A stretch of 64,000 nt of DNA from an uncultured Candidatus Saccharibacteria bacterium (GTDB lineage Bacteria; Patescibacteriota; Minisyncoccia; Minisyncoccales; JANBVM01): positions 17,303 through 81,302 of the forward strand of contig CAZEQH010000001.1 in the NCBI GenBank assembly GCA_964514375.1, written 5' to 3'. The translations under genes were made by a program, and so were the position numbers. Below are positions 23,757-59,219 of this stretch, piece by piece (position 1 is the first letter of the stretch; every line of letters starts with the position of its first letter). Under the pieces are notes generated by a model. The model saw nothing but the letters and a program-made list of their open reading frames with translations, did no database searches and was not told where the DNA came from.

Positions 23757-23763
23757 AGAATAT

Positions 23764-25465: not shown

Positions 25466-25978
25466 ATGAAAACACTTTATTTGCCAGCGGAGATTAGGGA
25501 GGAACTCAGGAAACCCTGGGGTATCTCCATCTTCGGCACTGAAAAAGAAATAAGGGAAAAATACAGCCAGATTATAAAGGAGAAAAAATACAGCCAGGTC
25601 ATCACGGTAGGAGACAAGTGCTCTCTCAGCCTTACCTCTGATATTAAAATATTTGATGGGAAGATAAACCGGAAAGGCATAGAGAGCATCATTCCTTTTG
25701 AGTTGAAGGTTTTTAATCCTGCAGGCACTATCCAGGAAGAGGCGTGGCAGACTGTCGAGGAGGCTATTCGGGGAAAAAAGAACGTTTTTGTGAAAGGAGA
25801 GGAAGACCTTCTTGTAATTCCCGCGGTCTTGCTGGCGCAGAAGAATACGGTCGTGGTGTACGGATTGCGCGGCAGGGGAATATGTCTGGTGGAGGTTTCC
25901 CCTAAAATCAAACAGGATTTCCAAAACATAATAAGCAGATTCCAGGCTAGACGGTCCTCTGAAGAATGTGAACCGTAA
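25466..25978 (+). CDS. DUF359 family protein (archaeal-type GTP-dependent dephospho-CoA kinase family)
   Basis: VITVGD, IFDGKINRK, VKGEEDLLVIPAVL, VVYGLRGRG match my recollection of DUF359 conserved blocks. The 3-prime end overlaps the convergent thiolase by 32 nt. Confidence 0.65.
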   Translation: MKTLYLPAEIREELRKPWGISIFGTEKEIREKYSQIIKEKKYSQVITVGDKCSLSLTSDIKIFDGKINRKGIESIIPFELKVFNPAGTIQEEAWQTVEEAIRGKKNVFVKGEEDLLVIPAVLLAQKNTVVVYGLRGRGICLVEVSPKIKQDFQNIISRFQARRSSEECEP

Positions 25979-27074: not shown

Positions 27075-27087
27075 AGAAATAAAAAAA

Positions 27088-28872
27088 TTAGTTTTCTGGA
27101 AGCCAGCTTACAGTGAGGCACCCTGAGCCGAAACCGGCTGTACTGGCGGCAGGATTGGCACCTATGAAAGACACTTCTGCTTCCATTCTGCTTTTTAATT
27201 CCTTCTTCATTAATTCCGCCTCCTCGAAATTGTCGCTGTGGCCTATCAATATCCTGATTTTTTTACCGTCCTTCCTCTTTTTTTTACTGACCCTGATGGT
27301 TTTTTTGACTAGGGCCTGACGGTAATCTTCTGCCAATACCACACCTCCCTTCCTATACTGTCCCTTTTTAATTTCAAATAGGGGGTTGAGTTTGATTATC
27401 TTGTCAACGTTACGCGCCCATCTCACATAGGAAGATTTCATCCCCTCCACTTTATCAAGCAGTTTTAGGTCCTTTGCGGCGATATAGGAACGGACTTGTG
27501 GAATGAGCTCTCTGAGCTTTTTTATTATATCTTCCAGTTCCCACTGTTCCTGTATTAATTCTATAGCGCGCAGCAATATCAGAGATTCTCCTCCGGCAGT
27601 ATTCAGCGAATCTAATACGAAAACTCTTTTAGGGTTATCCAATCCTTTTTTTGCCTCCATGCCGTTTTTGAATGAATTGAAGATTTTGGAAGAACTGGTG
27701 ATACACAGCACTTTTTCAAAGTTTTTCAGCTGTTCCTGAAAGATTTTGAAATAATCATCTGCGTTCGGCGGAGAGAAGGAGGGCATAGAAAAATCTTTTC
27801 CCTCTTCCCTTGAATGAAAGAGGACACTGTCTTCAAGAGGGGGCACGCTTCGAAAACTAATTTTTTGGATTTGATATCTTTCTTCTATCTTGGGTAGCAG
27901 GAGCGCTTGGTTGTCGACCATCAATCCTATGGATATCGTTCTCAAAGATTGCTCTCCCGCTATTTCATTGGACATGTCTTCCATCCTCAGGTCCCGGATT
28001 TGCCCCAAATTCCTCATCACTTGTTTTACCTCTTCAGGATAATCGGTGTGGATATGTATTTTTATCCTATTTTTTACCCTGACAATGTCAAGGCAGTTGC
28101 CTAACCCTTTCAGTTTTTCCGTGATTTCCTGCTGACTGAAAGGAGAATCCTCAATCAGGGAAACTATTTCATATCTGTTGGACAGCACCTGGATGAATCT
28201 CTTGATTTGTTCTGCGGAAGATTCTTCCTTTTCTTCTGCCGCCGTTTCCTTTTTCCCTTCCAGTGTCTCCAGATAACTTTCTAGTATAACGAGAAATCCC
28301 AGGCCTCCCGCATCTACCACATTGGCTTTTTTAAAGATTTCCATCTTTTCCCTGGTTTCCATAAGGGCCTTCCCGGCATTCTCTTTCGCTCTCCTGAATA
28401 TTTTTATAAGGTCCTGTTCTTTTTTAGATTGCTCCCGGAAGGTTGCGGCCGCCTCATCAATTACGTCCAGTATGGTTCCATCTCTGGGATGCTGTATGCT
28501 TTCTCTCGCTCTGTCGGCTCCTTTTTCGAAACCTCTGGCTAATCTTTCGGCGTCCAAAGACTCCGGACTGGAGCTTGACGATATTCCCTCCAAGAATCCC
28601 GCTAAAAAGCCGGTATAAATTACACCGGCATTGCCTTGAGCCTGGCTCAGCGCTCCTTCCAGTATGGCATCGGCCAGGCTGGAGATATTTTCGAATTCTT
28701 TATTTTCGACAGCTTCTTTTATGCCGGACAGGGTCTTGGCGATATTATTGCCGGTATCCTGGTCCGGTACGGGAAAAACGTTTATTTTATTGATTTCTTC
28801 TTTTTCCTGTTCAATCTTGCTCCAAGAACTCAACATCATCTCCTTTAATTCTCTTTTTGTGAGATGTAGCAT
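27088..28872 (-). CDS. DAK2 (DhaL-like) domain fused to a DegV-like domain; FakA/YloV-like fatty acid kinase component
   Basis: N-terminal FPVPDQDTGNNIAKTL (DhaL nucleotide site). YloV-like middle (IHIHTDYPEEV). C-terminal DegV blocks (SFSPPNADDYF, CITSSSKIFNSF, VLDSLNTAGGESL). Confidence 0.75.
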   Translation of the reverse strand: MLHLTKRELKEMMLSSWSKIEQEKEEINKINVFPVPDQDTGNNIAKTLSGIKEAVENKEFENISSLADAILEGALSQAQGNAGVIYTGFLAGFLEGISSSSSPESLDAERLARGFEKGADRARESIQHPRDGTILDVIDEAAATFREQSKKEQDLIKIFRRAKENAGKALMETREKMEIFKKANVVDAGGLGFLVILESYLETLEGKKETAAEEKEESSAEQIKRFIQVLSNRYEIVSLIEDSPFSQQEITEKLKGLGNCLDIVRVKNRIKIHIHTDYPEEVKQVMRNLGQIRDLRMEDMSNEIAGEQSLRTISIGLMVDNQALLLPKIEERYQIQKISFRSVPPLEDSVLFHSREEGKDFSMPSFSPPNADDYFKIFQEQLKNFEKVLCITSSSKIFNSFKNGMEAKKGLDNPKRVFVLDSLNTAGGESLILLRAIELIQEQWELEDIIKKLRELIPQVRSYIAAKDLKLLDKVEGMKSSYVRWARNVDKIIKLNPLFEIKKGQYRKGGVVLAEDYRQALVKKTIRVSKKKRKDGKKIRILIGHSDNFEEAELMKKELKSRMEAEVSFIGANPAASTAGFGSGCLTVSWLPEN

Positions 28873-30930: not shown

Positions 30931-31498
30931 ATTTGCCGAAGAAAGGATTGGGAGCTTTTTTGCTAAATTCGGGTTGAACGCCAATAACTATACCGTAATT
31001 TCTATCTTTTTAATTTTACTTTCTTTTTATTTTCTAAGCAGGGCCGATTTTATTCCATCCCTAATCTTTTTTCTGGCGGCAGGTTTCATGGATTTGGTTG
31101 ACGGGGCAGTAGCCCGGTTCAATAAAAAAGCTTCCAAGAGAGGAGCTTATCTGGACACCGTCTGCGACCGTTATGTTGAGGGGATAATCTTTTTAGGATT
31201 CCTTACCCTGCCCCTGCCTTACTATTTTTCTATTCCGGCCAAGGTATGGATATTTATTGCCTTTTTCGGCTCGCTTATGACAACCTATGCCAAGGCCGCA
31301 GCCAAGGAAAAAGGATTAGTTTCAGAGGAATTAAAGAAAGGCCTATTGGGCAGAGGAGAGAGGATGATTCTGATTGCTCTGGCCATGGTTCTCGGGGCTT
31401 TCAACATTTATTGGATCCTCTATCCTATTATCGCGCTGGCTGTTTTTTCCAATCTCACGGCTCTCCAGCGCATTTATCTATCCCTCGCTCCAAGATAA
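30902..31498 (+). CDS. CDP-alcohol phosphatidyltransferase
   Basis: DLVDGAVARFNKKASKRGAYLDTVCDRYVEG fits DGxxAR...G...D...D. 198 aa, multi-pass. 29-nt overlap with the PHP gene. Confidence 0.85.
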   Translation: MLEQKRQKFKFAEERIGSFFAKFGLNANNYTVISIFLILLSFYFLSRADFIPSLIFFLAAGFMDLVDGAVARFNKKASKRGAYLDTVCDRYVEGIIFLGFLTLPLPYYFSIPAKVWIFIAFFGSLMTTYAKAAAKEKGLVSEELKKGLLGRGERMILIALAMVLGAFNIYWILYPIIALAVFSNLTALQRIYLSLAPR

Positions 31499-32362
31499 GG
31501 CCAGGGCATCGGGGCCCGCTATGGCGCCTACCACGTTGTTGACCAGATTAATAAAAATAATCTGGCTGTTTTTAATCTCCTGCTCAACCATACCTTTTAG
31601 GCGGTTAGCAGCTGCCAGGTTGTCTCCGTGGGTGATAACCACTCTTATACGCTGGCCCTCAGCTGCGGATTTTTTAGTCTTCTCCTGAATTGTTTTGGCC
31701 AGGGCAACGGCCGTGTCTTTGGCTCCGAACTTCACTCCCATAGGTTTTAAGGCTCCTTTCTGCATTCCGATTACCGGACGGATTCCCACGTTTCCCATTT
31801 TTCTTACCCATCCTGCTACTGTAGAAGACATGCGGCCGGAAAATTCTATCCATTTGGGGTCCTGGAACACTATAGTAAGGTGCGTCCTGTCCCGCCAGAA
31901 TTTTTCCAGGTTTTCCGCAATCTGCCCGGCGTTTAATTCCCCTTGTTCCAGAAGCTCTTGGGCTTTCAAAACCATAAGGGCTTCGGCTCCGCTGGCGTTT
32001 AAGGAGTCTACCACGAAAACCTTCTCTCTCTTTTCGGCAGGCAGGAATTTTTTCGCCTGTATGGCGGAATTATAGGTTCCGGAAAGCTTGGAGACTATGG
32101 TGACGCATATTAATTCTTCAAATTTTTCAAATTGCTTATTATAAACGTCCAGAAAATTCTTGGGAGAGGGCTGGGACGTTTTACCGAAGGTTTTCATTCC
32201 TCTTTTTTCTACCTCTCTCATTTTTTGATAAACGTTTTCTCCGGGCAGGTCCTGGATTTCCGGCCAGTCTAATTTGACCGGCACTACCCCTATGTCGTAT
32301 TTTTCTATTATTTCATGGGTTAAATCTGCGCCTTCGTCTGTCACTAATCCGATTTTTTCCAT
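31478..32362 (-). CDS. DegV family fatty-acid-binding protein (FakB-like)
   Basis: IGLVTDEGADL, TSQPSPKNFLDVY, VSKLSGTYNSA, VVDSLNASGAEAL. 294 aa. Confidence 0.9.
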   Translation of the reverse strand: MEKIGLVTDEGADLTHEIIEKYDIGVVPVKLDWPEIQDLPGENVYQKMREVEKRGMKTFGKTSQPSPKNFLDVYNKQFEKFEELICVTIVSKLSGTYNSAIQAKKFLPAEKREKVFVVDSLNASGAEALMVLKAQELLEQGELNAGQIAENLEKFWRDRTHLTIVFQDPKWIEFSGRMSSTVAGWVRKMGNVGIRPVIGMQKGALKPMGVKFGAKDTAVALAKTIQEKTKKSAAEGQRIRVVITHGDNLAAANRLKGMVEQEIKNSQIIFINLVNNVVGAIAGPDALALSWSEG

Positions 32363-32405
32363 AGTATGAAAATCATTTTAAATTAATTTGAAAGCGACCT
32401 TTTCC

Positions 32406-32798
32406 TTAAATGGCCAGATGCCTGACCGCGGCTTTCTTTTTTTCAAAGTTGATGTTGACGGCTATAACACCTATCTCCCATTTTGAGTCCAGAGGTATTT
32501 TGTTCTTTGCCAGCCAGTATTCCGCGCTCCTGATTATCTTTTTCCTTTTGGCTGAATTTACTTTTTCTTCTGGACGTACCGGTCCATTCAGAGAAGACAG
32601 CGTCTTCACTTCCATAAAGGAGATAACATCATCCTTTTTGGCCACGATATCCAGTTCCCCTTTCTGGGGTCCCCGGGATGTGCGGAAGCAGAAATTGGTG
32701 TCCAGTATGCGGTAACCTTTCTTTTCAAGATAGGAACGGGCGATTTTTTCTCCCAGCTCCCCGACCTTCTTGGTTTTCATAAAATGGTTTCGAGCCAT
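32406..32798 (-). CDS. YraN/UPF0102 family endonuclease-like protein
   Basis: GELGEKIARSYLEKKGYRILDTNF...GELDIVAKK...FMEVKT. Start trimmed to ATG 32798, because the track ORF runs into tRNA-Ala. Confidence 0.75.
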   Translation of the reverse strand: MARNHFMKTKKVGELGEKIARSYLEKKGYRILDTNFCFRTSRGPQKGELDIVAKKDDVISFMEVKTLSSLNGPVRPEEKVNSAKRKKIIRSAEYWLAKNKIPLDSKWEIGVIAVNINFEKKKAAVRHLAI

Positions 32799-32811
32799 AT
32801 TATAAAGATTT

Positions 32812-32885
32812 TGGTGGACCTGACGGGAATCGAACCCATGTCTCTGCAATGCGAATGCAGTGCTCTGCCCCTGAGCTACAGGCCC
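32812..32885 (-). tRNA. tRNA-Ala (CGC), CCA encoded
   Basis: Acceptor GGGCCTG/CAGGTCC with G3:U70, anticodon stem CTGCA/TGCAG with loop TTCGCAT, 3-prime ACCA. Confidence 0.9.
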
Positions 32886-33511
32886 TCTATAATTTTCCGG
32901 AGTTCAGTCAGTGAAGTTGTCTTAGTCCCTCGGTAATCGGCCAATTTGTTTTTCCGGTCGATTAAAATTGTCTTTATGCCTAATTTTTCAGCAGGGGCGA
33001 TGTCCCTTTCCGGGTCATCTCCTATCATTACTGCTTTGTCGGGATTTACTTGGAAACTTTTCAGCACCGTCAGGAAGACCTTGGGATCAGGCTTCAGGAA
33101 ACCCGTTTCCACCGGAGTGAAAATTTCCCCAAAATTTTTCAGTTCAGAACTTTCAACCAGGAACTTTGCGCTGTCGGTAAGAATAGTTTTCTTGCCGGGC
33201 AGTTTCAGGATTTCTTTTACGTCATCGTATAATTTATAGGCAATGTTTTCCCGGAGAAAATCCGCCAGTCTTATCATGTTTTTCTTTCTTTGATTGTCGC
33301 TGAAATCTTTCAAAAGCTGACGGCTGAAGTCTTCCCAGTTTTTTGCAAAACACATTAGTTTGGAAAAGGCGTGAGAAAATTTTTCGGCATCGGTCTCCCT
33401 TTTTATGTTGATGCCGAAAATCCCCAGCTGGGAAAAGAATTTCCGGGGTTCATAGTCTTCAGCGAAAGCCAGGGTATTCCAGAAGTCAAAAATTATAAGC
33501 TCAGGCTTCAT
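32876..33511 (-). CDS. HAD-superfamily hydrolase
   Basis: IIFDFWNTL (motif I variant), TDS (motif II), MIGDDPERD (motif IV). The stop TAG lies 10 nt inside the tRNA-Ala 5-prime end. Confidence 0.7.
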   Translation of the reverse strand: MKPELIIFDFWNTLAFAEDYEPRKFFSQLGIFGINIKRETDAEKFSHAFSKLMCFAKNWEDFSRQLLKDFSDNQRKKNMIRLADFLRENIAYKLYDDVKEILKLPGKKTILTDSAKFLVESSELKNFGEIFTPVETGFLKPDPKVFLTVLKSFQVNPDKAVMIGDDPERDIAPAEKLGIKTILIDRKNKLADYRGTKTTSLTELRKIIEGL

Positions 33512-33543
33512 GTCTATTTTAAGTTCCTGTCCTGATTATGCTT

Positions 33544-33614
33544 TCGGGATGCTGGGAATCGAACCCAGGCCGCAGGCTCCCGATGCCTGTGTACTACCGT
33601 TATACTACATCCCG
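33544..33614 (-). tRNA. tRNA-Pro (CGG), CCA not encoded
   Basis: Acceptor CGGGATG/CATCCCG, anticodon stem CAGGC/GCCTG with loop ATCGGGA, T-arm CTGGG-TTCGATT-CCCAG. Confidence 0.85.
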
Positions 33615-33616
33615 TA

Positions 33617-35089
33617 TCAGGTGACCCAGTATTTCTTTTTGGTCATCTGGTCTCTTTTTATTTCAATTTTTTCGATGTATTTGCGGGCCGCAAAAGCAGC
33701 AGAGGAAAGTTCTTTAGCAGGCAGCCCACCCATTTCCTTAACCATTTTTCTAAGAAAACTCCTCTTATTGCTTTTCGGTTCTTTCAAAACTTCACTAAGC
33801 AGGATGTCCAGTATCTGGCCTACGGCAGGCCCCTCCTTTATGTCCATCATTTTCATTACCTCGTGGCCGTCGATTTTAAGCATCCTAGTTGAAATAGGAT
33901 CTTGGGCAACCTTGTCTATCACATACTTCATATGTCTGAGCTTGTATGGTTCAGCCTTGGGAACCCCTGAGCCGATTCTATCGGCCATCCTGACTTGAAG
34001 AAGTTCTTCCATATTCTCTGATCCCACCTGCCTTACCAATCTTCTGACGGAACTTTTTCCGACTTCTTCCGGATTATAATAAAAAAGGTGATACCTTACC
34101 AGTTTTACTATCTTTTCTGCGTCCTTTTTAGGAAATTTCAACCGGTTTAAGATGCGGGCCGTTATCCTGGCTCCGACTATCTCGTGTCCGTAGAAGGTAG
34201 CCTCTTTTCCCTTGCCTCTTTTACTTTTGGGCTTTCCTATGTCGTGCAAGAGAGCAGCCAACCTTACATGCTGGTTAAAATCCCTTTTGGCAGCGTAATC
34301 CAGGGAGCGCACGGAATGCTCATAGCAGTCGTATATATGATGTTTGCTCTGCGATATCCCGCGGCTTTCTTCTAATTCCGGGATAATATAGCGGAGCAGG
34401 TTCAATTTTCTTAATAGCTCTATGCCCTCAGCGGCTCTTTCCGACATGACAATTTTTACCAATTCATCCCTTATCCTTTCTTTAGAGATGTCTTTCAGGA
34501 GCTGTGAATTATTTTTAATGGCCTGATAAGTTTTGTCCTCTATTTTCCAGCCGCGGCCGAGCTTGACCGCAAATCTGACAGCTCTCATCATCCTTAGGGC
34601 GTCTTCCGAAAATCTTTCTTCGGGAGTCCCGACTGCCTTGATTATCCTATTTTTGATATCTCTCTGTCCTCCGAATGGGTCGATAAGCTTTTTCTTTCTC
34701 TCACTAGGTTCTTCCCAGCCTATGGCTATGGCATTGACGGTGAAATCTCTCCTGGACAAATCCTCTTCTATGGTTTTAGCGAAGGTAACTTTATCGGGAT
34801 GGCGCTTGTCGGCATACTGGGTTTCCAGCCGGTAAGTGGTAACATCGATCTCCCGCAGTCTGTCGTCCTGGCTGCCGGTTTGGACGGTCACCGTAAAAAA
34901 CCTGTTTTTATAGTAGCTTTTGGTAAATATCTTTTGTATTTGCGAAGGCCGGGCGTTGGTGGCAATGTCCCAATCCTCAGGTTCTGCACGGCTTAAAAAA
35001 TCTCTCACGCACCCGCCCACCACATATCCTTCAAATCCTGATTTCTTCAGTTTGCGGAGTACTGATTTTATTTCTTTGGGAAGCTCCAT
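33617..35089 (-). CDS. cca: CCA-adding tRNA nucleotidyltransferase with HD domain
   Basis: GYVVGGCVRDFL, DWDIAT, TYR, RRDFTVNA head-domain motifs plus LLHDIGK HD domain. 490 aa. Confidence 0.9.
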   Translation of the reverse strand: MELPKEIKSVLRKLKKSGFEGYVVGGCVRDFLSRAEPEDWDIATNARPSQIQKIFTKSYYKNRFFTVTVQTGSQDDRLREIDVTTYRLETQYADKRHPDKVTFAKTIEEDLSRRDFTVNAIAIGWEEPSERKKKLIDPFGGQRDIKNRIIKAVGTPEERFSEDALRMMRAVRFAVKLGRGWKIEDKTYQAIKNNSQLLKDISKERIRDELVKIVMSERAAEGIELLRKLNLLRYIIPELEESRGISQSKHHIYDCYEHSVRSLDYAAKRDFNQHVRLAALLHDIGKPKSKRGKGKEATFYGHEIVGARITARILNRLKFPKKDAEKIVKLVRYHLFYYNPEEVGKSSVRRLVRQVGSENMEELLQVRMADRIGSGVPKAEPYKLRHMKYVIDKVAQDPISTRMLKIDGHEVMKMMDIKEGPAVGQILDILLSEVLKEPKSNKRSFLRKMVKEMGGLPAKELSSAAFAARKYIEKIEIKRDQMTKKKYWVT

Positions 35090-35181
35090 ACAACTTGATT
35101 CTATATAAATTTATTGTTTTTTTCAATTTCTTTGATAAACTGGGAACAACAGTTTCAGATTCCTGGAATTGCTTAAATTCC

Positions 35182-35253
35182 GCCCCCGTAGCTTAATGGA
35201 TAAAGTTCTGGTCTTCGGAACCAGCGATGAGGGTTCGACTCCTTCCGGGGGCA
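35182..35253 (+). tRNA. tRNA-Arg (UCG), CCA not encoded
   Basis: Acceptor GCCCCCG/CGGGGGC, anticodon stem CTGGT/ACCAG with loop CTTCGGA, T-arm GAGGG-TTCGACT-CCTTC. Confidence 0.85.
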
Positions 35254-35289
35254 CCCTTCGACTCGCTTCGCTCTCTCAGGGTAAACCCC
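35254..35289 (+). repeat. tRNA 3-prime trailer repeat (CCTTCGAC type)
   Basis: CCCTTCGACTCGCTTCGCTCTCTCAGGGTAAACCCC immediately after the tRNA-Arg discriminator. Confidence 0.6.
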
Positions 35290-35315
35290 TTTACTGAAAC
35301 TACGGGGCGTAAGGA

Positions 35316-35344
35316 TTGATAAAACAATTCTAAAAAGTTAAAAT
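35316..35344 (+). promoter_or_regulatory. Sigma70-like promoter positioned for a leaderless transcript of the 338-aa gene
   Basis: TTGATA (35316-35321), 17-nt spacer, TAAAAT (35339-35344). The ATG is at 35351, 7 nt after the -10, with no Shine-Dalgarno. Confidence 0.5.
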
Positions 35345-35350
35345 AAAATA

Positions 35351-36367
35351 ATGATAAAACTGCCTAATATTTTAATATTTATCTTGCTGGTTTTTCTCAT
35401 AGTTCCCTCGGGCGCGGGAGCCCTTTGCGAGGGGCCGATAGTACCCTGCGGGAGGGAGGGTACTCCGGAGTGCTCGGTTTGTCATCTTTTCGAGCTTTTT
35501 AATAATGTTCTTGAGTTTCTGCTGACCTGTCTGGTTCCCATTATTGGTGTTTTTATGCTGGTGTTAGGAGGCTTTTATTTTCTTTTTTCAGGTTCCAGTC
35601 CTGCCATGATGAATCAGGCCAGGTCTATTTTCACAGCCGCTTTGATAGGCATTATCATTATTTTTTCTTCCTGGGTGGTGCTGAATACCTTTCTGAGCAC
35701 CATCGGGGTGGCAGAGTGGACCGGGCTGGATTCCGGCTGGTGGCAGATTAACTGCGTTTATAACTCTGGTGACGACGGAGACGGCGGCGATGGTGACGAC
35801 GGAGACGGCGGAGACATTGACGATACCGGAACGCCCGGTGCCTGCTGCGGGGAATGTATGAGATGGAACGCTGCCGGTGACAGCTGCAACGTGCCCTTAA
35901 AAACTAATTGGGGTTACGCCGAATGCGCCTGCACGGGACCAAACAGGGCGTGCATTATGGGAGAGTGCGTCACCTGTGACGGGAAAATATTTTCAGACGG
36001 CTGCGGCGGTTGCACTAATCAGAAAGGCGCCGAAGATTCAGAGTTTGTTTGCTGGAGGGAGGCGGGCTCGGGGCAGTCCTGCAGTTCCTTCTGTTCAGCT
36101 TTCGGAGGCGACTGCGCTTCAGGTACCTGGGACGACAATACCAGTTGCGGTGTGTGCAGGGCTTTTCATCCGGCTACTCACAGCGCAAACTGCGATGGCT
36201 CCGGTAGCAGTGGTGCCCCGTATACAGATAAGGCGTCCAATATCTGGGGAGAGACGTGGTATAACTGCCGTTACAGAGAGTCCCAGCTTTGGGTTTCAAG
36301 CGGCGCTCTGTCCTGCGGTGCCGGGCCGGGAAGCGGTAACAGGCGTTTCTGTGTTTGTGCAGAATAG
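35351..36367 (+). CDS. Pilin-module family member with the two-helix module at the N-terminus, Asp/Gly linker and Cys-rich C-terminal domain
   Basis: Signal/TM segment, CxxC, helix-SGSSPAMMNQARS-helix module as in 56176-59164. DGDGGDGDDGDGGD linker. ~170-aa Cys-rich tail. Confidence 0.7.
   Translation: MIKLPNILIFILLVFLIVPSGAGALCEGPIVPCGREGTPECSVCHLFELFNNVLEFLLTCLVPIIGVFMLVLGGFYFLFSGSSPAMMNQARSIFTAALIGIIIIFSSWVVLNTFLSTIGVAEWTGLDSGWWQINCVYNSGDDGDGGDGDDGDGGDIDDTGTPGACCGECMRWNAAGDSCNVPLKTNWGYAECACTGPNRACIMGECVTCDGKIFSDGCGGCTNQKGAEDSEFVCWREAGSGQSCSSFCSAFGGDCASGTWDDNTSCGVCRAFHPATHSANCDGSGSSGAPYTDKASNIWGETWYNCRYRESQLWVSSGALSCGAGPGSGNRRFCVCAE
35768..35815 (+). repeat. Two copies of a 24-nt tandem repeat inside the CDS
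   Basis: GGTGACGACGGAGACGGCGG occurs at 35768 and 35792. It encodes the Asp/Gly linker. Confidence 0.8.
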
Positions 36368-37342: not shown

Positions 37343-39802
37343 ATGGAATTATTATACGGGACAATCTTTACCTCGGCACTGGTGCTCGCGGCAGTTCTGG
37401 GTTTTTTATTCTTTAAAAAGAGGGAGAAAGAAAAAATTCTGGGAAGCTTTGACATGTCTCTTTTCCGGGTTACCATGCCGAAGTACCGGCTCAAGAAAGA
37501 AGAGGTCTCTGAGAAAGACGAAAAGGCCGTAATCGGCCAGATGGAACAAGTGCTGTCCAATTTCCTGCATCTTAAAAAACCTGGTTTGTTCAACAGCTTA
37601 TTTTCTGGACTGCCGAGGATAGCTTTGGAAATTTCTTCTCAGATTGGAGGCACGGACATTTCTTTCTATACGGCCGTGCCGAGTTATCTGGAGTCTGCCT
37701 TGGAGAAGTATATTCAGGGAATTTACCCTCGTGCCTCAGTAGAAAAAGTCCCTCAAGATTATACTATATTTGAGCCCGCCGGCGTTACTGCGGGCGCTTA
37801 TTTGAAATTAAAGGAAACCGCCCTTTTTCCTATTAATACCTACAGGAATCTTGAAAAGGACCCTTTGTCGTCTATCACCAATTCTTTAAGCAAGATTGCT
37901 CCTGACGAAGGAGCTGCTCTCCAGATAATAATCAAGCCGTCTGCAAAAAGTTTAAAGCATATCGGAGAAAAAGTTCTTAGTAGAATCAGAGAAGGAGGTA
38001 ATGTTAGCAAGGCTATAGCAGAATCTTTCAGGTCACCCTTAGCTTCCGCACTAGCTGAGGTTTTTAAAATTTTTTCCAGTCTGGAAAAAAATAAGAAATA
38101 TGATTCGGTAGCGGAAGACATAAGGAAAAAACAGCTCAATATAGACGAAAACGTAATTAAGGCTATTCAGGATAAAATTCAGAAGCCGGTTTTTGATGTC
38201 AACATAAGAGCCGTCAGTTCCGCCTCCACCGTAGAAAGGGCAAAGGAAATCCTTAATCATCTGGAGGGAGCTTTTTCCCAGTTTTCCCTTTTTGTTAACA
38301 ATGGTTTTGTGTTTCGGGAGACCGAGGGAAGACATTTAAAGAGACTGATTTACGATTTCAGTTTTAGGAATTTTAACCCAGGTCAGGAAGCGATTTTAAA
38401 CGTGGAGGAACTTACCAGTATTTATCACTTTCCCACGCATTTTTCCGAAATCCCCTACGTTAAAGGGCTTAGAAGCGGAGATGCGGCTCCTCCCTTCGAT
38501 CTTCCGGAAAAGGGGTTGAATCTGATAGGCCGGGTCGTTTTCAGAGGAGAAGAAAAAAAAGTATGTTTTGCCGGCAGGGAAGACAGAAGGAGACATTTTT
38601 ATATTATTGGGCAGACCGGAACGGGTAAAAGCGGCCTCTTAAGCGAAGCCATCAGGCAGGATATGGAAAAGGGAGAGGGAATAGCTGTTATTGACCCTCA
38701 CGGTGATTTGGTGGAAAAAACATTGGCTAATGTTCCAGCAGAGAGGATCGAAGACGTGGTTCTTTTTGAACCCTTTGACGTTGAACGTCCGGTGGGATTA
38801 AACATGCTGGAATACAAGACTCCCGGACAAAAAGACTTTGCCGTTCAGGAAATGATTTCCATTTTTCATAAACTCTTCCCTCCTGAAATTATAGGTCCTA
38901 TGTTTGAACATTATATGAGGAACGCCATGCTTACCATCATGTCTGATTCCGGCAGGCCGGGAACGCTGGTGGAAATACCGCGGATGTTTACAGACCAAAG
39001 TTTTATGGAACACAAACTCCAGAAGGTTACAGACCCCCTGGTCAGGAGCTTTTGGCTTAAGGAGTGGAAGCAGACAACGGGCGCTACTAAATCGGATATG
39101 CTGGGATATGTTGTTTCCAAGGTGGGACGCTTTATCGAGAATGAAATGATGAGGAACATCATAGGGCAATCTCATTCCGGCTTTGATTTGGGAAAAATAA
39201 TGGACGAAGGTAAAATTTTTCTGGCCAATCTCTCCAAAGGCATGACAGGGGAAGTAAATGCATCTTTGCTGGGACTAATCCTGGTTTCTAAAATGCAGAT
39301 GGCGTCCATGAGGAGGTCTCAGGTTCCGGAAAAAGACAGAAGGGATTTTTATCTTTATATAGATGAATTCCAGAACTTCACCACAGACAGCATCGCCACC
39401 ATTCTCTCCGAAGCCAGAAAATACAGACTTAATCTTATCCTGGCGCACCAGTATATACCCCAGCTTACTGATGTTATAAGGGACGCTGTTTTAGGCAATG
39501 CGGGCACCATCGCTGCATTCCGGGTAGGGGCGGATGACGCAGAATTTCTTGAAAAACAGTTTGAGCCGGAGTTTTCCCGTTTTGACCTGGTCAACCTGGA
39601 CAACTATAATTTGGTAATAAAAATGATGATAAAGGGCAAGATGTCAGAGCCCTTCAGAATGCAGACTTTTCCTCCGAAGGAAGGTAATACTCAGGCGGTA
39701 GGGAAAATAAGAGAGACCTCCAGGTTAAAGTATGGAAAAGCCAAGGAAGAAGTGGAGGCGGAGATCTTAGAGAATTCAAAATTGGGCCTTATCGAATCTT
39801 GA
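37343..39802 (+). CDS. VirD4/TraD/TraG-like (T4SS coupling-protein-type) membrane-anchored ATPase with a large N-terminal domain
   Basis: N-terminal TM helix. Walker A HFYIIGQTGTGKSGLL...VIDPHGD. Walker B FYLYIDEFQNF. ARKYRLNLILAHQYIPQL and GNAGTIAAFRVGADDAEFL blocks. 819 aa. Confidence 0.75.
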   Translation: MELLYGTIFTSALVLAAVLGFLFFKKREKEKILGSFDMSLFRVTMPKYRLKKEEVSEKDEKAVIGQMEQVLSNFLHLKKPGLFNSLFSGLPRIALEISSQIGGTDISFYTAVPSYLESALEKYIQGIYPRASVEKVPQDYTIFEPAGVTAGAYLKLKETALFPINTYRNLEKDPLSSITNSLSKIAPDEGAALQIIIKPSAKSLKHIGEKVLSRIREGGNVSKAIAESFRSPLASALAEVFKIFSSLEKNKKYDSVAEDIRKKQLNIDENVIKAIQDKIQKPVFDVNIRAVSSASTVERAKEILNHLEGAFSQFSLFVNNGFVFRETEGRHLKRLIYDFSFRNFNPGQEAILNVEELTSIYHFPTHFSEIPYVKGLRSGDAAPPFDLPEKGLNLIGRVVFRGEEKKVCFAGREDRRRHFYIIGQTGTGKSGLLSEAIRQDMEKGEGIAVIDPHGDLVEKTLANVPAERIEDVVLFEPFDVERPVGLNMLEYKTPGQKDFAVQEMISIFHKLFPPEIIGPMFEHYMRNAMLTIMSDSGRPGTLVEIPRMFTDQSFMEHKLQKVTDPLVRSFWLKEWKQTTGATKSDMLGYVVSKVGRFIENEMMRNIIGQSHSGFDLGKIMDEGKIFLANLSKGMTGEVNASLLGLILVSKMQMASMRRSQVPEKDRRDFYLYIDEFQNFTTDSIATILSEARKYRLNLILAHQYIPQLTDVIRDAVLGNAGTIAAFRVGADDAEFLEKQFEPEFSRFDLVNLDNYNLVIKMMIKGKMSEPFRMQTFPPKEGNTQAVGKIRETSRLKYGKAKEEVEAEILENSKLGLIES

Positions 39803-39832: not shown

Positions 39833-40438
39833 ATGCCGGAACAAACATTCTTCAAGGAACAGGCAGAGTCCTTTATGAAATTCAAGGGTAAGATAAGAGG
39901 CGTTGGATTAAAGAATTACGCAGATTATATTTTTAAGGAAGAGGGAGAGGAAAGTCTTAAAAGAGTGGAAGATGCAACTGCCCGGGTCGGTTATCCCATT
40001 AAGTACGGAATGCTTAAGAGTATGGAATTTTATCCCTTGGGCTATCAGGCCATTACTATCGAGGCTGTCAGGCAAACCTTAGGGTATACGAATGAAAAAT
40101 TCTACGAATTAGGGAATTTTGAACCAAAGGTTTCTTTTATAATCAAACTTTTCCTCAAATATTTTGTATCCCTTGACAGGTTAGCCAAAGAAGCACCCAA
40201 TATGTGGAGGAAGTACTACACTGTGGGGAATATTAAGGTAACGGAGCTGAATAAAGAACAAAATAATCTGGTTATCAGACTGGAAGATTTCCCCTGTCAT
40301 CCTATACAGTGTCACGAAACACTTAGGGGTTATTTTGCCAGGATGGTACAGATGGTGGTAGCGGATGAGGTGATTTCCAAAGAAACCAAATGCGTATTCC
40401 GGGGCGATGACTATCATGAATATTTGATGGAGTGGTAA
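39833..40438 (+). CDS. Paralog family A, member 5
   Basis: GKIRGVGLKNY...FYPLG...MWRKYY...C-terminal CVFRGDDYHEYLMEW. Starts 30 nt after the ATPase stop. Confidence 0.7.
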   Translation: MPEQTFFKEQAESFMKFKGKIRGVGLKNYADYIFKEEGEESLKRVEDATARVGYPIKYGMLKSMEFYPLGYQAITIEAVRQTLGYTNEKFYELGNFEPKVSFIIKLFLKYFVSLDRLAKEAPNMWRKYYTVGNIKVTELNKEQNNLVIRLEDFPCHPIQCHETLRGYFARMVQMVVADEVISKETKCVFRGDDYHEYLMEW

Positions 40439-41646: not shown

Positions 41647-41721
41647 GTCCCCGTAGTTTAACGGATAAAACAGTGGCCTCCTAAGCCGCGGATGGAGGTT
41701 CGATTCCCCCCGGGGACACCA
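41647..41721 (+). tRNA. tRNA-Arg (CCU), CCA encoded
   Basis: Acceptor GTCCCCG/CGGGGAC, anticodon stem GTGGC/GCCGC with loop CTCCTAA, 3-prime ACCA. One A-C mismatch in the T-stem. Confidence 0.8.
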
Positions 41722-41760
41722 GGTTGCTCCGCAACCCAGCAATTCAGCAAAACTGAATGC

Positions 41761-41837
41761 GGGCCCATAGCTCAGCTGGCCAGAGCGTCGGTATGGCATA
41801 CCGAAGGTCGTGGGTTCAAGTCCCACTGGGTCCACCA
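41761..41837 (+). tRNA. tRNA-Ala (GGC), CCA encoded
   Basis: Acceptor GGGCCCA/TGGGTCC with G3:U70, anticodon stem TCGGT/ACCGA with loop ATGGCAT, T-arm GTGGG-TTCAAGT-CCCAC. Confidence 0.9.
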
Positions 41838-41898
41838 CTTCGCTCCTTCACTTTGTTTTGGAGCTTCGCGGCGCAAGCACAGTGTGATTTACAGGTTG

Positions 41899-42204
41899 AT
41901 GGTATCAGAGAAAATAAGAAGTGGTGTCCCGCGGAGCTATAGAATACAGCGAAGTGGGGCAATAGTCTCTTATGTATATATATTAAAGAGCCAAAGAGAC
42001 AATAGTCACTATATTGGAGTAACCGGAGATTTAAAAAGAAGAATTCAGGAACATAATTCAGCCTCAGTAAAATCTTCTAGGTTAAAACGCCCTCACAGAT
42101 TAATTTGGTATTGTGTTTTTAAAAATAAAGGAAAGGCATATAATTTTGAAAAATATCTGAAATCCAGCTCTGGTTACGCTTTTTCTAAAAAGAGATTTCT
42201 ATAA
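41899..42204 (+). CDS. Small GIY-YIG nuclease family protein embedded in the tRNA cluster
   Basis: YVYILKSQRDNSHYIGVTGDLKRRIQEHN...E.YLK pattern. The track ORF start (41692) runs through two tRNAs. First ATG after them is 41899; the true start is uncertain. Confidence 0.7.
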   Translation: MVSEKIRSGVPRSYRIQRSGAIVSYVYILKSQRDNSHYIGVTGDLKRRIQEHNSASVKSSRLKRPHRLIWYCVFKNKGKAYNFEKYLKSSSGYAFSKKRFL

Positions 42205-55540: not shown

Positions 55541-55573
55541 GATTATTAAGGATAAACAGCAAGGATTCCCTCA

Positions 55574-55596
55574 CCCTCTTTATAAAGAGGGTTTTG
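55574..55596 (+). terminator. Intrinsic terminator after gyrA
   Basis: CCCTCTTTA/TAAAGAGGG followed by TTTT. Confidence 0.7.
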
Positions 55597-55669
55597 TTGT
55601 TGAAAAAGACTTTTACAAAAACCCTAAAGACGGTAAAATGAAATAAATACCTAATAAAAAAACAGAATT

Positions 55670-56179
55670 ATGGCTTTTCTTAATCCACAGAAGATATTAG
55701 AGCTCCTGGGAATAAAGGAAAATTATACTGCCGCAGATTTTGGCTCCGGCTCAGGTGGCTGGGTTATCCCACTGGCCAGATTATTGACCCGCGGTAAGAT
55801 TTATGCCGTTGATATTCTGGAAGAGCCGCTTTCTGCCATGAGAAGCAAATTGAAACTGGAGAAGCTGCTGAATGTAGAGACTGTTAAGGCAGACGTGGAA
55901 AAAAATTCCCGTCTGCTAACCGGCAGCTGCGACCTGGTTCTAATGACCAATCTCCTGTTTGAGGTAGAAAACAAGGATAGGGTTTTTGAAGAAGCTAAGA
56001 GAGTAATGAAATCAGGAGGTAAACTTTTAATAGTGGACTGGAAAAGAGATGCTCCGCTCAGCCCTGCCACTTCCGTTTCCCCAGAGGAGATAAGAGGAAA
56101 GGCGGAGAAGGCAGGCTTCACTCTGGAAAAAGAACTTGACGCAGGCTTTTATCACTGGGGTTTAATCTTCAAAAAATGA
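55670..56179 (+). CDS. Class I SAM-dependent methyltransferase
   Basis: Motif I DFGSGSGGW. Post-I acidic residue (AVDILE). 169 aa. ATGA overlap with the next gene. Confidence 0.8.
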   Translation: MAFLNPQKILELLGIKENYTAADFGSGSGGWVIPLARLLTRGKIYAVDILEEPLSAMRSKLKLEKLLNVETVKADVEKNSRLLTGSCDLVLMTNLLFEVENKDRVFEEAKRVMKSGGKLLIVDWKRDAPLSPATSVSPEEIRGKAEKAGFTLEKELDAGFYHWGLIFKK

Positions 56180-57717
56180 AGTTAAAAGAATCATCTCTTG
56201 AGAGAACTGGTCAATTTTTAATTTTAATGACGCCTCTTATTTTGGCGTCTTTGTTTTTTTCTTTTGAAATCTCAGCTCAGAGTTGTGTTCCAGCCAGGGG
56301 CGACGCATGCGTGCCCAGAATACTAATTGACTGCTGCAGTCCTTTAAGGTGCACTAACCATAACGGCGGAATATGTTATCTTCCAGGAGCCGGCTTATCG
56401 AGGGGAGAGACGTGCTATTCTGGCCAGGAGTGCACTACGGGCCTTTCCTGCACGGGAGGCGTGTGCTGTGACACTAGCCTGGACTTAGGGGGAGGCAGCG
56501 CCTGCTACTGTAGCGGAGAGTGTGCTTCAAATAATTGTTCAGGAGGCGTTTGTACAAATCCCCAGTGTTCAAATTTCCCCAATTGTTTTTGCTGTCCCAG
56601 ATTTGAACCAGGGTGTGATGAGTCAGATTGCGGTATGTCTTATGGTAGTTTTTCAAAAGATTCAAGCAAAAACTGTCCTATTTTAGGAGGAAGACCTTCT
56701 GAGTGCTGCTGCGGTGATTGTGCTTTACTGGGAAAATCCTGCTCTTCTTATAGTTGTTGTCCCGATGCCGTTTGCCTGGGTGGCATATGTAAAAATGAAC
56801 ACTTCAGGGGTGAGAGTTGCGACCCATCATATTATTTCTGCAGCAGTGGTTTGAACTGTGTCGGCACCACCTGCTGTGATCCGGCTCTTTCCCTGCCGGG
56901 AAACTCTGTCTGTTACTGTGACGACGAATGTGATTCCGGTCAGTGTACTGGCGGTCATTGTTATATAGACCCCTGTGAAGGAGTGGACTGCGGTTCCTGC
57001 GCCTACTGCAGCGGCGGTAATTGCCTGGATTATTGTTCCGGCAGCAATGATGACTGCGGCTGCAGTTCCTGCGTTGACTGTGATACCTTGGACGGATGGG
57101 TCAATGAAGGAACACCCTTTAATTGCTGTGATGGAGAAGACAGGGTCTGTATGTGCCGGAATCAAACTAATCGCGATTATTACTGTTCAGGTACCTCATG
57201 TTCTTTCTCCACGGTCGGCAGCAGGGTGGCACAAAGTAGCTGTTACGACTGTCCTTCGGGCAGATATTGCGCGGAAGGCACAGGATGTCTGCTTCCCCAG
57301 ACCAGGGGAGAAGCCTGCAGTCCTTCTGCTCCTTGTAATGCGGGGCTGGACTGTGTGGACGGAGCGTGCTGTGACCCCGCTATCGCTCTCAGCGGTGGGA
57401 CGTCTTGTTATTGTAACGACGAATGCATCTCCGGGGATTGCGAGAATGGACAATGTGCCTCCGGTATCGTGATTATGAACCCTGTTCCGGGTACGGATTT
57501 AGCGGACATTATCAAAAATATAATAAACTTTATCTTTACAGCCTCGCTTTTCATAGCACCCCTGATGATAATTATAGCTGCCTTCGTGCTGGCTACCGCT
57601 GCCGGAGATACCGTTAAGGTGGATACAGCCAAGAAAATAATCTTATGGACCGTCGTGGGGTTTTTAGTAGTATTACTGTCCAAGGGTATCTTTCAGGCAG
57701 TTCAGGGCCTCTTTTAA
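56176..57717 (+). CDS. Giant Cys-rich secreted domain (three ~50-aa repeats) fused to a C-terminal two-helix VirB2/TrbC-pilin-like module
   Basis: Signal-like N-terminus. My hand count is 72 Cys between residues 36 and 430. Repeats at aa 76-126, 211-262 and 377-427. C-terminal helix-AAGDTVKVDTAKK-helix. Confidence 0.75.
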   Translation: MKLKESSLERTGQFLILMTPLILASLFFSFEISAQSCVPARGDACVPRILIDCCSPLRCTNHNGGICYLPGAGLSRGETCYSGQECTTGLSCTGGVCCDTSLDLGGGSACYCSGECASNNCSGGVCTNPQCSNFPNCFCCPRFEPGCDESDCGMSYGSFSKDSSKNCPILGGRPSECCCGDCALLGKSCSSYSCCPDAVCLGGICKNEHFRGESCDPSYYFCSSGLNCVGTTCCDPALSLPGNSVCYCDDECDSGQCTGGHCYIDPCEGVDCGSCAYCSGGNCLDYCSGSNDDCGCSSCVDCDTLDGWVNEGTPFNCCDGEDRVCMCRNQTNRDYYCSGTSCSFSTVGSRVAQSSCYDCPSGRYCAEGTGCLLPQTRGEACSPSAPCNAGLDCVDGACCDPAIALSGGTSCYCNDECISGDCENGQCASGIVIMNPVPGTDLADIIKNIINFIFTASLFIAPLMIIIAAFVLATAAGDTVKVDTAKKIILWTVVGFLVVLLSKGIFQAVQGLF

Positions 57718-57741
57718 GACAACGAAGTTTTGTGGTAAAAT
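57713..57741 (+). promoter_or_regulatory. Possible extended -10 promoter for the 113-aa pilin-module gene
   Basis: TGGTAAAAT (57733-57741) with a weak -35 TTTAAG 17 nt upstream. Confidence 0.35.
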
Positions 57742-57771
57742 CTTATAAGCAGGCAGAAACAGGCAAAAATT

Positions 57772-58113
57772 ATGAAAAATTTAAATTTTAATAATTTCGC
57801 TACTTTAGTTATTACAGGCCTTCTCCTTGGCTCAGTTGTTTGGGGCCAGTCCGTTTCTTTGCCTAATCCTCTGGAGGCGAACAGTTTCGAAGAATTGATA
57901 GACAGTGTCATTAATATTATCTTTTATCTTGCCCTTCTGCTTGCCCCACTGATGGTAATCGTGGCCGGGTTTTTATTTGTTACAGCCGCAGGTGACCCAA
58001 ACAGGGTAACCGCTGCCAAGAGGATAATTCTTTGGACAGCCGTAGGGTTCCTTATTGTTTTGCTTTCCAAGGGTATTTTCCAAGCCGTCACAGGGTTGCT
58101 GTCCTCTCCGTAA
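57772..58113 (+). CDS. Minimal pilin-module family member (signal peptide + two-helix module)
   Basis: 113 aa. ...FYLALLLAPLMVIVAGFLFVTAAGDPNRVTAAKRIILWTAVGFLIVLLSKGIFQAV is almost colinear with the C-terminus of the 513-aa protein. Confidence 0.7.
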   Translation: MKNLNFNNFATLVITGLLLGSVVWGQSVSLPNPLEANSFEELIDSVINIIFYLALLLAPLMVIVAGFLFVTAAGDPNRVTAAKRIILWTAVGFLIVLLSKGIFQAVTGLLSSP

Positions 58114-58203
58114 ATGGAACTTGATTTCCAATACTTTGACAATATTGTATAATCTATATAAAGGTTGTTATAATATAACATTAATAGGAGGAACCAATTC
58201 GAT

Positions 58204-58701
58204 ATGAAAGACTATAAAAAAAATATCTTTCTTTTCTTGATACCGGTTTTATCTTTGATGGCTATGCCTGGTATGGTCTTTGCCCAGCCTCTTCAATGCT
58301 GTAAACTGTCTTCTGCTGTGGAATTTGACGGGCAAACCTTTAGCTCAGGAATCTGGCTGGCAGAACATCAAAACACAAATTGCGACGGCGTCTCAGGAAA
58401 TGAAATCGGAGCCGTTACTTGCAGTCCAACCAACGCCAATATTACCGCTTCCTGTGCTACGCCAAAATGGGGTATAATATGCCTGTTGAATTCAATAATT
58501 ACTATTACCAACTGGATATTCTATATCTTGGTGGTTATGACCGGTTTCCTGGTTATCCTTGGCGGATTTACGATTGCCACAGCCGGAGGCGACCCTTCTA
58601 ATGTGGATAAAGGGAAAAACTACATCCTCTATGCTATGGTTGGTTTGGCCGTTGCTCTATTGTCACGAGCCATACCGGCAGTAGTAAAGGCATTAGTCTA
58701 G
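58204..58701 (+). CDS. Pilin-module family member with a small Cys-containing ectodomain
   Basis: Signal peptide ending VFAQP. ~70-aa domain with 6 Cys. Module ...GGFTIATAGGDPSNVDKGKNYILYAMVGLAVALLSRAIPAVV. AGGAGG RBS 9 nt upstream. Confidence 0.7.
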   Translation: MKDYKKNIFLFLIPVLSLMAMPGMVFAQPLQCCKLSSAVEFDGQTFSSGIWLAEHQNTNCDGVSGNEIGAVTCSPTNANITASCATPKWGIICLLNSIITITNWIFYILVVMTGFLVILGGFTIATAGGDPSNVDKGKNYILYAMVGLAVALLSRAIPAVVKALV

Positions 58702-58753
58702 ATTTAATGAAAATTTAAAAGGTCGATAAAAGTTTTTAAAGAGGAAAATTAAA

Positions 58754-59164
58754 ATGAATAAGAAAATAGTTTCCAGCGTACTTGTGGCTGGCATGATGGC
58801 AGGAACCTTGGTTCCTATGCTAGCCTTAGCCCAGCCCCAGACCGGATGCACCCTAAAACACGACATTGAGGGCTTTACCGCAGATGGATGTACTTCAGGA
58901 GCCTCTATAAATGAAAGCAATCCCATTTGGGGTATTTGCTGCATTATGGATGCAGTACTGACCGTTACCGACTGGATATTCTACGGCTTATTGGTGGTAA
59001 CTGCCCTGTTGGTTATTTGGGGCGGATTCACTATCGCCACAGCCGGCGGCAGCCCTGATAAGGTGGGAGAAGGAAGAAACTACATCCTCTACGCCATGAT
59101 TGGTTTGGCCGTTGCTCTATTGTCACGAGCCATACCGGCAGTAGTGAGAGCTTTGATTTCTTAA
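58754..59164 (+). CDS. Pilin-module family member with a small Cys-containing ectodomain
   Basis: Signal peptide ending LALAQP. Module ...GGFTIATAGGSPDKVGEGRNYILYAMIGLAVALLSRAIPAVV. 46 nt identical to the 3-prime part of the preceding gene. Confidence 0.7.
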   Translation: MNKKIVSSVLVAGMMAGTLVPMLALAQPQTGCTLKHDIEGFTADGCTSGASINESNPIWGICCIMDAVLTVTDWIFYGLLVVTALLVIWGGFTIATAGGSPDKVGEGRNYILYAMIGLAVALLSRAIPAVVRALIS

Positions 59165-59189
59165 AAACCTGAACGAACGAAGAAAATTA

Positions 59190-59219
59190 AATCAACCCCG
59201 TTCAACGGGGTTGATTTTG
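59190..59219 (+). terminator. Intrinsic terminator after the pilin-module cluster
   Basis: AATCAACCCCG-TTCAA-CGGGGTTGATT followed by TT. Confidence 0.75.

Follow-up and report, generated by a model that had tools for sequence, protein, structure and literature searches.

A probable chromosomal operon of VirB2-like pilins with cysteine-rich heads in a Patescibacteria genome

The 64,000-nucleotide stretch analysed here (the window; positions are counted from its first letter) belongs to contig CAZEQH010000001.1 of an uncultured Patescibacteria bacterium. It carries four consecutive plus-strand genes for paralogous pilin-like proteins, A513, B113, C165 and D136, preceded by a gene for a class I S-adenosylmethionine (SAM)-dependent methyltransferase (MTase). 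The five genes probably constitute a chromosomal operon of VirB2-like pilins of the Patescibacteria-type type IV secretion system (T4SS). All four proteins, and a divergent fifth protein named E338, contain the two-helix hairpin of the Pfam family PF18895. Three of the four and E338 also bear a cysteine-rich domain outside the hairpin, which is called the head in the following.

The pilin module and its family

The members of the family in the window are as follows.

56176-57717, + strand: A513, head-bearing pilin of 513 amino acids (aa), with the signal peptide at aa 1-34 (56176-56277)
56278-57462, + strand: Cys-rich head of A513, aa 35-429, 72 Cys
57463-57714, + strand: linker and PF18895 hairpin of A513, aa 430-513
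57772-58113, + strand: B113, head-less Cys-free pilin of 113 aa, best PF18895 match (44.4 bits)
58204-58701, + strand: C165, pilin of 165 aa with a head of ~60 aa and 6 Cys, second pilin class
58754-59164, + strand: D136, pilin of 136 aa with a head of ~35 aa and 4 Cys, paralogue of C165
35351-36367, + strand: E338, divergent fifth member, 338 aa

The coordinates and lengths of the four tandem open reading frames (ORFs) and of the fifth agree with those in the initial annotation. Its shared C-terminal module is also present, but at ~78 aa it is longer than the 65 aa that had been given. The loop motif reads as described except in D136, which has GGSP in place of GGDP. The N-terminal signal-peptide character noted earlier is found in all five proteins, as judged from hydropathy windows and the -3/-1 residues. 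Each has an N-terminal hydrophobic signal segment followed by two long hydrophobic helices, and the residues at -3/-1 are compatible with signal peptidase I (ISA-Q, VWG-Q, VFA-Q, ALA-Q and AGA-L, with the second hyphenated residue following the site). Helix 2 opens with a basic residue in all five modules. The AlphaFold2 model of B113 has a predicted local distance difference test (pLDDT) score of 79.8, with helices at residues 6-23 (signal), 39-70 and 76-110, and the hairpin itself scores 84-94. Cys-bearing regions between signal and module had been ascribed to the whole array. They occur in three of the four members (72, 6 and 4 Cys), whereas B113 is Cys-free and is a plain pilin essentially without an ectodomain.

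The modules fall into two pairs. A513 and B113 are 56% identical over the module, and C165 and D136 are 69% identical over the module, 53% over the full length and 76% as a DNA repeat. Identity between the A/B and C/D pairs is 30-35%, and identity to E338 is 14-19%. A hidden Markov model built from the five modules, run against all six reading frames of the window, recovers exactly these five members (E 1e-33 to 1e-37), and the next match has E = 0.2.

All five proteins match the T4SS_pilin family PF18895, so that the pilin likeness proposed from the letters alone was borne out. The scores are 26.7 bits for A513, 44.4 for B113, 31.7 for C165, 33.7 for E338 and 23.3 for D136. Four of the five pass the gathering cut-off of 26.6 bits and D136 lies narrowly below it; D136 is counted in the family because its module and the C165 module are 69% identical. 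By these profile scores, membership in PF18895 is firm. When 71 family members were scanned, all 71 matched PF18895 and 22 also matched PF04956 (TrbC/VirB2) at E <= 0.01, the best at 6.9e-26. In addition, three of ten head-less single-module relatives match PF04956 over nearly the full profile with sub-threshold E values of 0.001-0.012. The link to canonical VirB2 thus appears remote but recurrent, and the module is, on profile evidence, a member of the T4SS-pilin superfamily. A match to a non-pilin membrane family, which would have spoken against a pilin, is found in at most 5 of the 71 members (MatE). Across the 71 divergent members there is hardly any variation at the NP(L) junction, in the T-A-G-D/N-P loop, or at F67 and G92.

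Two other kinds of pilin were considered and rejected. None of the five proteins has the type IV pilus motif G-(F/M)xxxE in its first 40 residues, and the module is a C-terminal two-helix hydrophobic one. Sortase-assembled pilins would carry LPXTG near the C-terminus, and no such motif is present near any of the five C-termini; the sole LPxxG-like string (LPGAG, residue 69 of A513) is within the head.

A search with the module profile returned 64,035 cluster representatives (E <= 1e-3). Of 63 with a single module, 27 lack a head; in 22 the module is preceded by 60-150 aa, and in 14 by more than 150 aa (up to 647). The combination of a head and a C-terminal hairpin is therefore seen in 36 of 63, and the module lies nearly always at the extreme C-terminus. 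At the same position, the heads of relatives are Ig-like, crystallin-like or Cys-rich, and include TIG, fn3, Kre9_KNH, NPCBM_assoc, BACON and crystallin domains, folds typical of extracellular binding. As far as sequence can tell, a head joined to a pilin hairpin is an architecture that occurs throughout the family and not a peculiarity of the window.

Some relatives are "poly-pilins", with two to eight full modules in one polypeptide behind one signal peptide. Examples are P0014 (606 aa, seven modules) and P0015 (820 aa, eight modules), and also P0016 and P0017. More than one module is present in 85 of the best 150 family matches, a ranking that favours multi-module proteins, and the status of these proteins as single ORFs is putative. 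Short linkers connect each hairpin, at its C-terminus, with the N-terminus of the following one, consistent with both ends being on the same side of the membrane. Poly-pilins are unmentioned in the published accounts of Patescibacteria pilin arrays that were examined.

Operon signals, related loci and heads

The array is framed by the following features.

55573-55592: gyrA terminator
55612-55639, + strand: sigma-70-like promoter candidate TTTACA-16-TAAAAT, a consensus match (promoter-like sites in the region are not above shuffles)
55670-56179, + strand: class I SAM-dependent MTase, 169 aa (Pfam Methyltransf_11/25/31)
59189-59217, + strand: intrinsic terminator, a 13-bp stem then a T-run, 24 nucleotides (nt) past D136

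The promoter candidate lies between the gyrA terminator and the MTase gene. The MTase stop and the A513 start overlap by 4 nt (ATGA), and the gaps between the pilin genes are 54, 90 and 52 nt. From the gyrA terminator, the promoter-like site, the short gaps and the end terminator, a unit MTase-A-B-C-D is predicted, and hence an operon of the MTase and the four pilins. An NCBIfam search with the MTase gave only generic class I SAM-MTase similarity and no specific family. The surroundings are those of an ordinary chromosome, with genes for NusA, IF-2, FtsH, S1, L19, GyrA and TsaD, a fatty-acid synthesis block and 20 tRNA genes. The array is bounded by the MTase gene and a tRNA-Leu/Hsp20 gene, and does not lie between virB1 and virB3/virB4.

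Seventeen related loci were compared, all from Patescibacteria metagenome-assembled genomes (Paceibacterales, Parcubacteria, Nealsonbacteria, Wildermuthbacteria and others). The set comes from a tight alignment and is biased towards B113-like pilins. Tandem arrays of two to four pilin genes occur in 16 of the 17 loci. In 14 loci gyrA and/or the MTase gene stands directly upstream of the array, with GyrA 60-93% identical. The MTase gene is upstream in 14 loci (within L004-L019) and adjacent in most, with a gap of ~770 nt in L017. The gene order (S1-FtsH-RluA)-gyrA-MTase-[pilins]-Hsp20-PrsW-glycosyltransferase-TsaD is largely kept wherever the contigs reach. Moreover, E338 has syntenic orthologues 3' of the gene for the CCA-adding enzyme in L009 and L012. 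Two of the loci have long gyrA ORFs, L013 (5315-9418) and L011 (5580-9284), of ~1,230-1,370 aa, where that of the window has 843 aa, and the alignment covers only ~715-735 residues; this suggests an insertion such as an intein.

The heads vary between these loci, as a comparison of head-domain turnover across related genomes confirms. Seven loci have two-gene arrays of head-less, Cys-free proteins of ~105-120 aa, one B-like and one C/D-like. Genes and heads (100-430 aa) have been gained in four others: L004 (512, 220, 117 and 184 aa), L005 (410, 113 and 133 aa), L006 (327, 433 and 134 aa) and L007 (202, 135 and 137 aa). The closest relative, L004, has flanking proteins 78-93% identical and pilins 67-77% identical to those of the window, and contains the extra headed pilin of 220 aa. 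Across these loci, the minimal form is, by gene content, two head-less pilins of ~110 aa, to which heads are lineage-specific additions.

A headed pilin outside the gyrA slot is P0004 (361 aa; L021 1630-2715 and L022 432-1517), from JGI 3300031364, one of the metagenome samples (with SRR9700623 and SRR8557364) that also yielded the array of the window. A related Cys-rich unit occurs several times in P0004, together with "CNNGVDDDCDG" repeats, and its gene stands alone among small hypothetical genes. Its neighbours include two ~199-aa proteins with weak V4R matches, like the window ORF at 39833-40438.

The head of A513 consists of six segments with 6, 10, 16, 10, 20 and 10 Cys, and Cys counts are even in every head segment. 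Its repeats and central domain are the following.

56395-56559, + strand: A513 10-Cys repeat R1, aa 74-128, recognised from Cys spacing and alignment; DNA repeat family D3
56800-56967, + strand: A513 10-Cys repeat R2, aa 209-264
56968-57297, + strand: A513 central 20-Cys domain, aa 265-374
57298-57462, + strand: A513 10-Cys repeat R3, aa 375-429

The 10-Cys repeats share the spacing C-x5-6-C-x5-C-x4-CC-x11-C-x-C-x3-C-x4-C-x4-C. The 20-Cys domain is also found in unrelated, non-pilin secreted proteins with Hint, CarboxypepD_reg or LTD/SNase domains. Between A513 and its L004 orthologue all 72 of 72 Cys are kept, whereas non-Cys positions are 65% identical, and the codons show 138 synonymous against 113 non-synonymous differences. 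The kept Cys and the synonymous excess indicate that the A513 gene is real and that its disulfide framework is constrained while surface positions vary.

E338, a VirD4-like ATPase and other features of the window

E338 differs in layout from the array members. A signal peptide and a short 4-Cys N-segment precede the PF18895 hairpin (aa ~48-114), which is followed by an Asp/Gly-rich linker and a C-terminal Cys-rich domain. Two genes 3' of E338, and 18 kb from the array, lies one further gene of interest.

37343-39802, + strand: VirD4/type IV coupling protein (T4CP)-like P-loop ATPase of the HerA/FtsK superfamily, membrane-anchored, 819 aa

Its Pfam matches are TrwB_AAD_bind (37.7 bits), DUF87 (34.9) and TraG-D_C (23.6), and its NCBIfam matches are all far under the cut-off. 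It also matches phrog_5156 (function unknown) over its full length (E 1.9e-87) and PADLOC mad8 (E 1.4e-13), and ~22%-identical full-length relatives annotated as "hypothetical protein" occur in SPO1-like Bacillus phages such as CP-51, Shanette and Goe10. The protein appears VirD4/T4CP-like rather than VirB4, with a soft label and an uncertain link to the pilins. In Patescibacteria, T4CP homologues generally lie apart from virB4, and the one in Southlakia epibionticum is non-essential. The initial annotation saw no VirB4, VirB6 or relaxase in the window. This holds for the larger ORFs, which were scanned in place of every ORF and include no VirB4, VirB6, VirB3, VirB8 or relaxase, but the VirD4-like ATPase had been overlooked.

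A replication origin at ~35 kb beside E338 was considered, since a cumulative GC-skew minimum and a switch of gene orientation from - to + fall within 32000-36000; E338 would then lie next to oriC, a position that the published survey of pilin arrays reports for T4SS genes. It was rejected: the window has 18 DnaA-box matches (13.8 +/- 4.1 expected), which form no cluster and of which none is close to 35 kb, and the skew tracks gene orientation.

The minus strand carries a fatty-acid-related block at 15249-28872, with a carboxyltransferase, a biotin carboxylase, two NMO/FabK-like enoyl reductases (one fused to a FabA-like dehydratase domain), a thiolase-like protein and a FakA-like/DegV protein; a separate DegV lies at 31478-32362. 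The block is unexpected because Patescibacteria are usually described as without de novo fatty-acid synthesis (PMC10633639). The density of tRNA genes (20 in 64 kb) is a further observation. The ORF at 41692-42204, with a GIY-YIG domain at aa 93-160, overlaps tRNA-Arg (41647-41721) and tRNA-Ala (41761-41837), and its true start is therefore probably further downstream.

Proposed mechanism, alternatives and known systems

The following scheme is proposed for topology, polymerisation, the division of labour between paralogues, and adhesion. After export by the Sec pathway and removal of the signal peptide, the C-terminal ~78 aa would be inserted into the membrane as a helical hairpin. The N-terminus would be outside, helix 1 would run out-to-in, the short T-A-(A/G)-G-(D/S)-P...K/R loop would be cytoplasmic, and helix 2 would return the C-terminus to the outside. 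In a pilus the basic loop would face the lumen. Solved pili have both termini on the exterior and a positively charged loop towards the lumen, which the basic residue of helix 2 parallels. Because VirB2 topology puts both termini outside, the N-terminal heads of A513, C165 and D136 and the C-terminal head of E338 would all be exterior. That the heads face outside is supported, within this predicted topology, by the signal peptides, the even Cys counts, the 72 of 72 conserved Cys and the extracellular-type domains at the same position in relatives.

B113 would be the bulk subunit. The headed paralogues would be minor or alternative subunits, or would be left as membrane-anchored forms, and would offer the host cell surface modular binding domains that evolve fast. 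VirB4, VirB6 and the rest of the assembly machinery would be encoded elsewhere in the genome. B113 is assigned the bulk and the headed paralogues the decoration because canonical pilus geometry limits the outer surface per subunit. With the H-pilus values (rise 12.14 A, C5, diameter 90 A), this surface is ~687 A^2, against head areas of 494 A^2 for C165, 325 A^2 for D136 and 1,699 A^2 for a compact A513. On this estimate every subunit would have room for a C165 or D136 head. For A513, one head per subunit would be excluded if the head is compact, and possible if it is an elongated string of small modules (~456 A^2 each). A decorated pilus or an adhesin function is plausible.

Several observations weigh against the assembly of VirB2-like pilins into a T4SS pilus. 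No PF18895 pilus has been observed to date, and a 2025 review calls a pilus in Patescibacteria monoderms an "intriguing possibility". No window protein matches PF04956 at E <= 0.1. When the module profile was aligned by hhalign with six genuine plasmid VirB2/TrbC sequences, including those of Agrobacterium, Sinorhizobium and Sphingobium, the probability was 5.6% (E 0.0069) and the weak match was in register over helix 1 only; both profiles were shallow. Foldseek with the B113 model gave nothing in the PDB at E <= 0.001, but generic helical hairpins of no discriminating value, among which the Aeropyrum pernix conjugation pilus 8dfu ranked 13 (E 5.7, TM 0.53/0.68). When PDB chains were searched by sequence and by profile, with A1, P0014 and A3 as queries, no pilin matched, and the fold and sequence searches of solved structures are together uninformative. 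The full-length AlphaFold2 model of A513, from a six-sequence alignment, has a mean pLDDT of 40; it was left unused, and a binding function for the head gains no structural support from it. The division of labour is argued from geometry borrowed from Gram-negative pili. Finally, the array appears tied to a T4SS only by homology, as core genes are absent from the scanned ORFs and the flanks of related loci are housekeeping genes. The absent virB4 linkage does not exclude membership, because in the survey of Quinonero-Coronel et al. 2025 (PMC12102498) a pilin was near virB4 in only 1,135 of 1,948 assemblies.

The strongest alternative is that the PF18895 hairpin has been co-opted as a two-helix C-terminal tether, which holds Cys-rich or Ig-like domains on a monoderm membrane and takes part in no filament and no T4SS. 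This would suit an array that adjoins no T4SS core gene, a housekeeping slot conserved across many genomes and a family without a demonstrated pilus. It would also accommodate heads that reach 650-1,000 aa in relatives, and a compact 395-aa head that is 2.5 times too wide for one-per-subunit packing. However, the conservation of the hairpin across 71 members (NP(L), the T-A-G-D/N-P loop, F67 and G92) goes beyond what a generic anchor needs. Head-less members, which have nothing to anchor, are the commonest form and are always retained in the array, and two distinct pilin classes are co-conserved. Moreover, the homologous array of S. epibionticum is essential and lies within a T4SS cluster (PMC10633639). 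A role as an anchor only is therefore considered doubtful.

Less likely still is a cut at the N-P-(L/V) junction, by which the Cys-rich domains would be freed as soluble proteins or act as long leaders, and the plain pilin would enter the filament. The motif NP(L/I/V) does lie exactly at the junction of head and hairpin, and just past the signal peptide in head-less members, and canonical conjugative pilins are terminally processed (TrhA loses five C-terminal residues and is then cyclised). On the other hand, the motif also occurs in head-less pilins, which have nothing to be removed, and it is therefore more simply read as the point where the pilin fold begins. The array has no linked protease gene, and the poly-pilins show that covalent terminal extension is tolerated. 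It is very improbable that these are small two-helix membrane proteins unrelated to pilins (holin-like, bacteriocin/immunity or transporter accessory proteins) that resemble VirB2 by hydrophobic composition only, as the weak direct profile-profile match to genuine VirB2 and the generic Foldseek hairpins might suggest, since PF18895 matches stand above the curated threshold, in-register PF04956 matches recur in relatives, signal peptides with extracellular-type heads are unfit for holins, and searches of the pilins against PHROG, PADLOC and phage homologues gave no match, which argues against holin or defence readings.

Within the favoured reading of a pilin operon, a bolder proposal is put forward only tentatively. 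The Patescibacteria hairpin may be a general display scaffold, which bears lineage-specific, modular binding domains, disulfide-rich or Ig-like, on its outward terminus. Together with a major pilin that has no head, these fusions would build a decorated T4SS filament on a monoderm cell and so set host specificity. The two-class operon, co-transcribed with the MTase downstream of gyrA, would be the core form in Paceibacteria-like lineages, and the poly-pilins with two to eight modules a further variation. Such a scaffold would be comparable to phage display on a coat protein. If true, this would be the first T4SS pilus with large globular domains on its subunits, and would widen the structural repertoire of conjugative-type pilins, so far bare subunits of ~70 residues. 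Much of the uncultivated diversity of bacteria belongs to Patescibacteria, which apparently live attached to host cells, and the T4SS and pilin array are essential in the sole Patescibacteria species tested. If the hairpin carries exchangeable binding domains, headed pilins would be candidate host-recognition determinants, and the turnover of heads between genomes might document changes of host. Without the display reading, the array itself is an ordinary member of a published class.

Patescibacteria T4SS arrays: Quinonero-Coronel et al. surveyed 3,035 genomes of Patescibacteria for PF04956 and PF18895. In 383 assemblies they found 441 arrays, each with 2-11 pilin genes and ~25% identity on average; arrays were most abundant in Microgenomatia and Saccharimonadia (PMC12102498). 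Wang et al. 2023 (PMC10633639) showed that a pilin series and the T4SS are essential for epibiotic growth of S. epibionticum, whose array (SEML1_0006-0019) lies inside the T4SS cluster. An array of small signal-peptide proteins was described in TM7x in 2018 (bioRxiv 10.1101/258137). The window array shares with these PF18895, tandem divergent paralogues, signal peptides, a chromosomal location without a relaxase nearby and a Patescibacteria host. In contrast, it is not in or beside a virB4 cluster but in the gyrA-MTase-...-Hsp20 slot, and its lineage is Paceibacteria/Parcubacteria-like. Three of its four members and E338 have Cys-rich ectodomains of up to ~395 aa, whereas the published pilins are small, and the identity between C165 and D136 (53% in full, 69% in the module) exceeds the typical 25%. 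Fusion of pilins to extra domains is unmentioned in PMC12102498, PMC10633639, the 2025 review and the TM7x preprint, and a literature search found no structural or experimental work on domain-fused pilins.

TrbC, VirB2, TraA and TrhA of the T-, F-, H- and RP4 pili: These share with the window proteins a Sec signal peptide, two long hydrophobic helices, a short basic loop, a mature core of ~70-80 aa and termini both on the outer side, the last being predicted for the window. The window proteins differ in matching no PF04956 model and in their monoderm host. The genuine virB2 genes that were fetched all lie between virB1 and virB3, and the window array is not so placed. Large terminal domains are unknown in canonical pilins, whose termini are trimmed or cyclised.

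Bartonella and Anaplasma VirB2 families (cited in PMC12102498): Tandem amplification and diversification of pilins, thought to vary surface or host range, is common to both. Their VirB2 proteins vary by point substitutions in a small pilin and are encoded in virB operons of diderm pathogens, whereas the window array varies by modular ectodomains.

Mycoplasma pilin-like family NF045849 (Mbov_0395 family): The hairpin has weak full-length similarity to this NCBIfam family of an integrative and conjugative element (ICE), with 33.9 bits for B113 and 26.1 for A513 below the cut-off of 40, and the host is likewise a monoderm. The Mycoplasma genes differ in lying in ICE conjugation modules.

The window array is a member of the published class of Patescibacteria VirB2-like pilin arrays and not a new system. 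To the literature searched it would add, on present sequence comparisons, a fixed housekeeping slot with a predicted co-transcribed MTase, a two-class minimal core, and modular Cys-rich heads on the hairpin.

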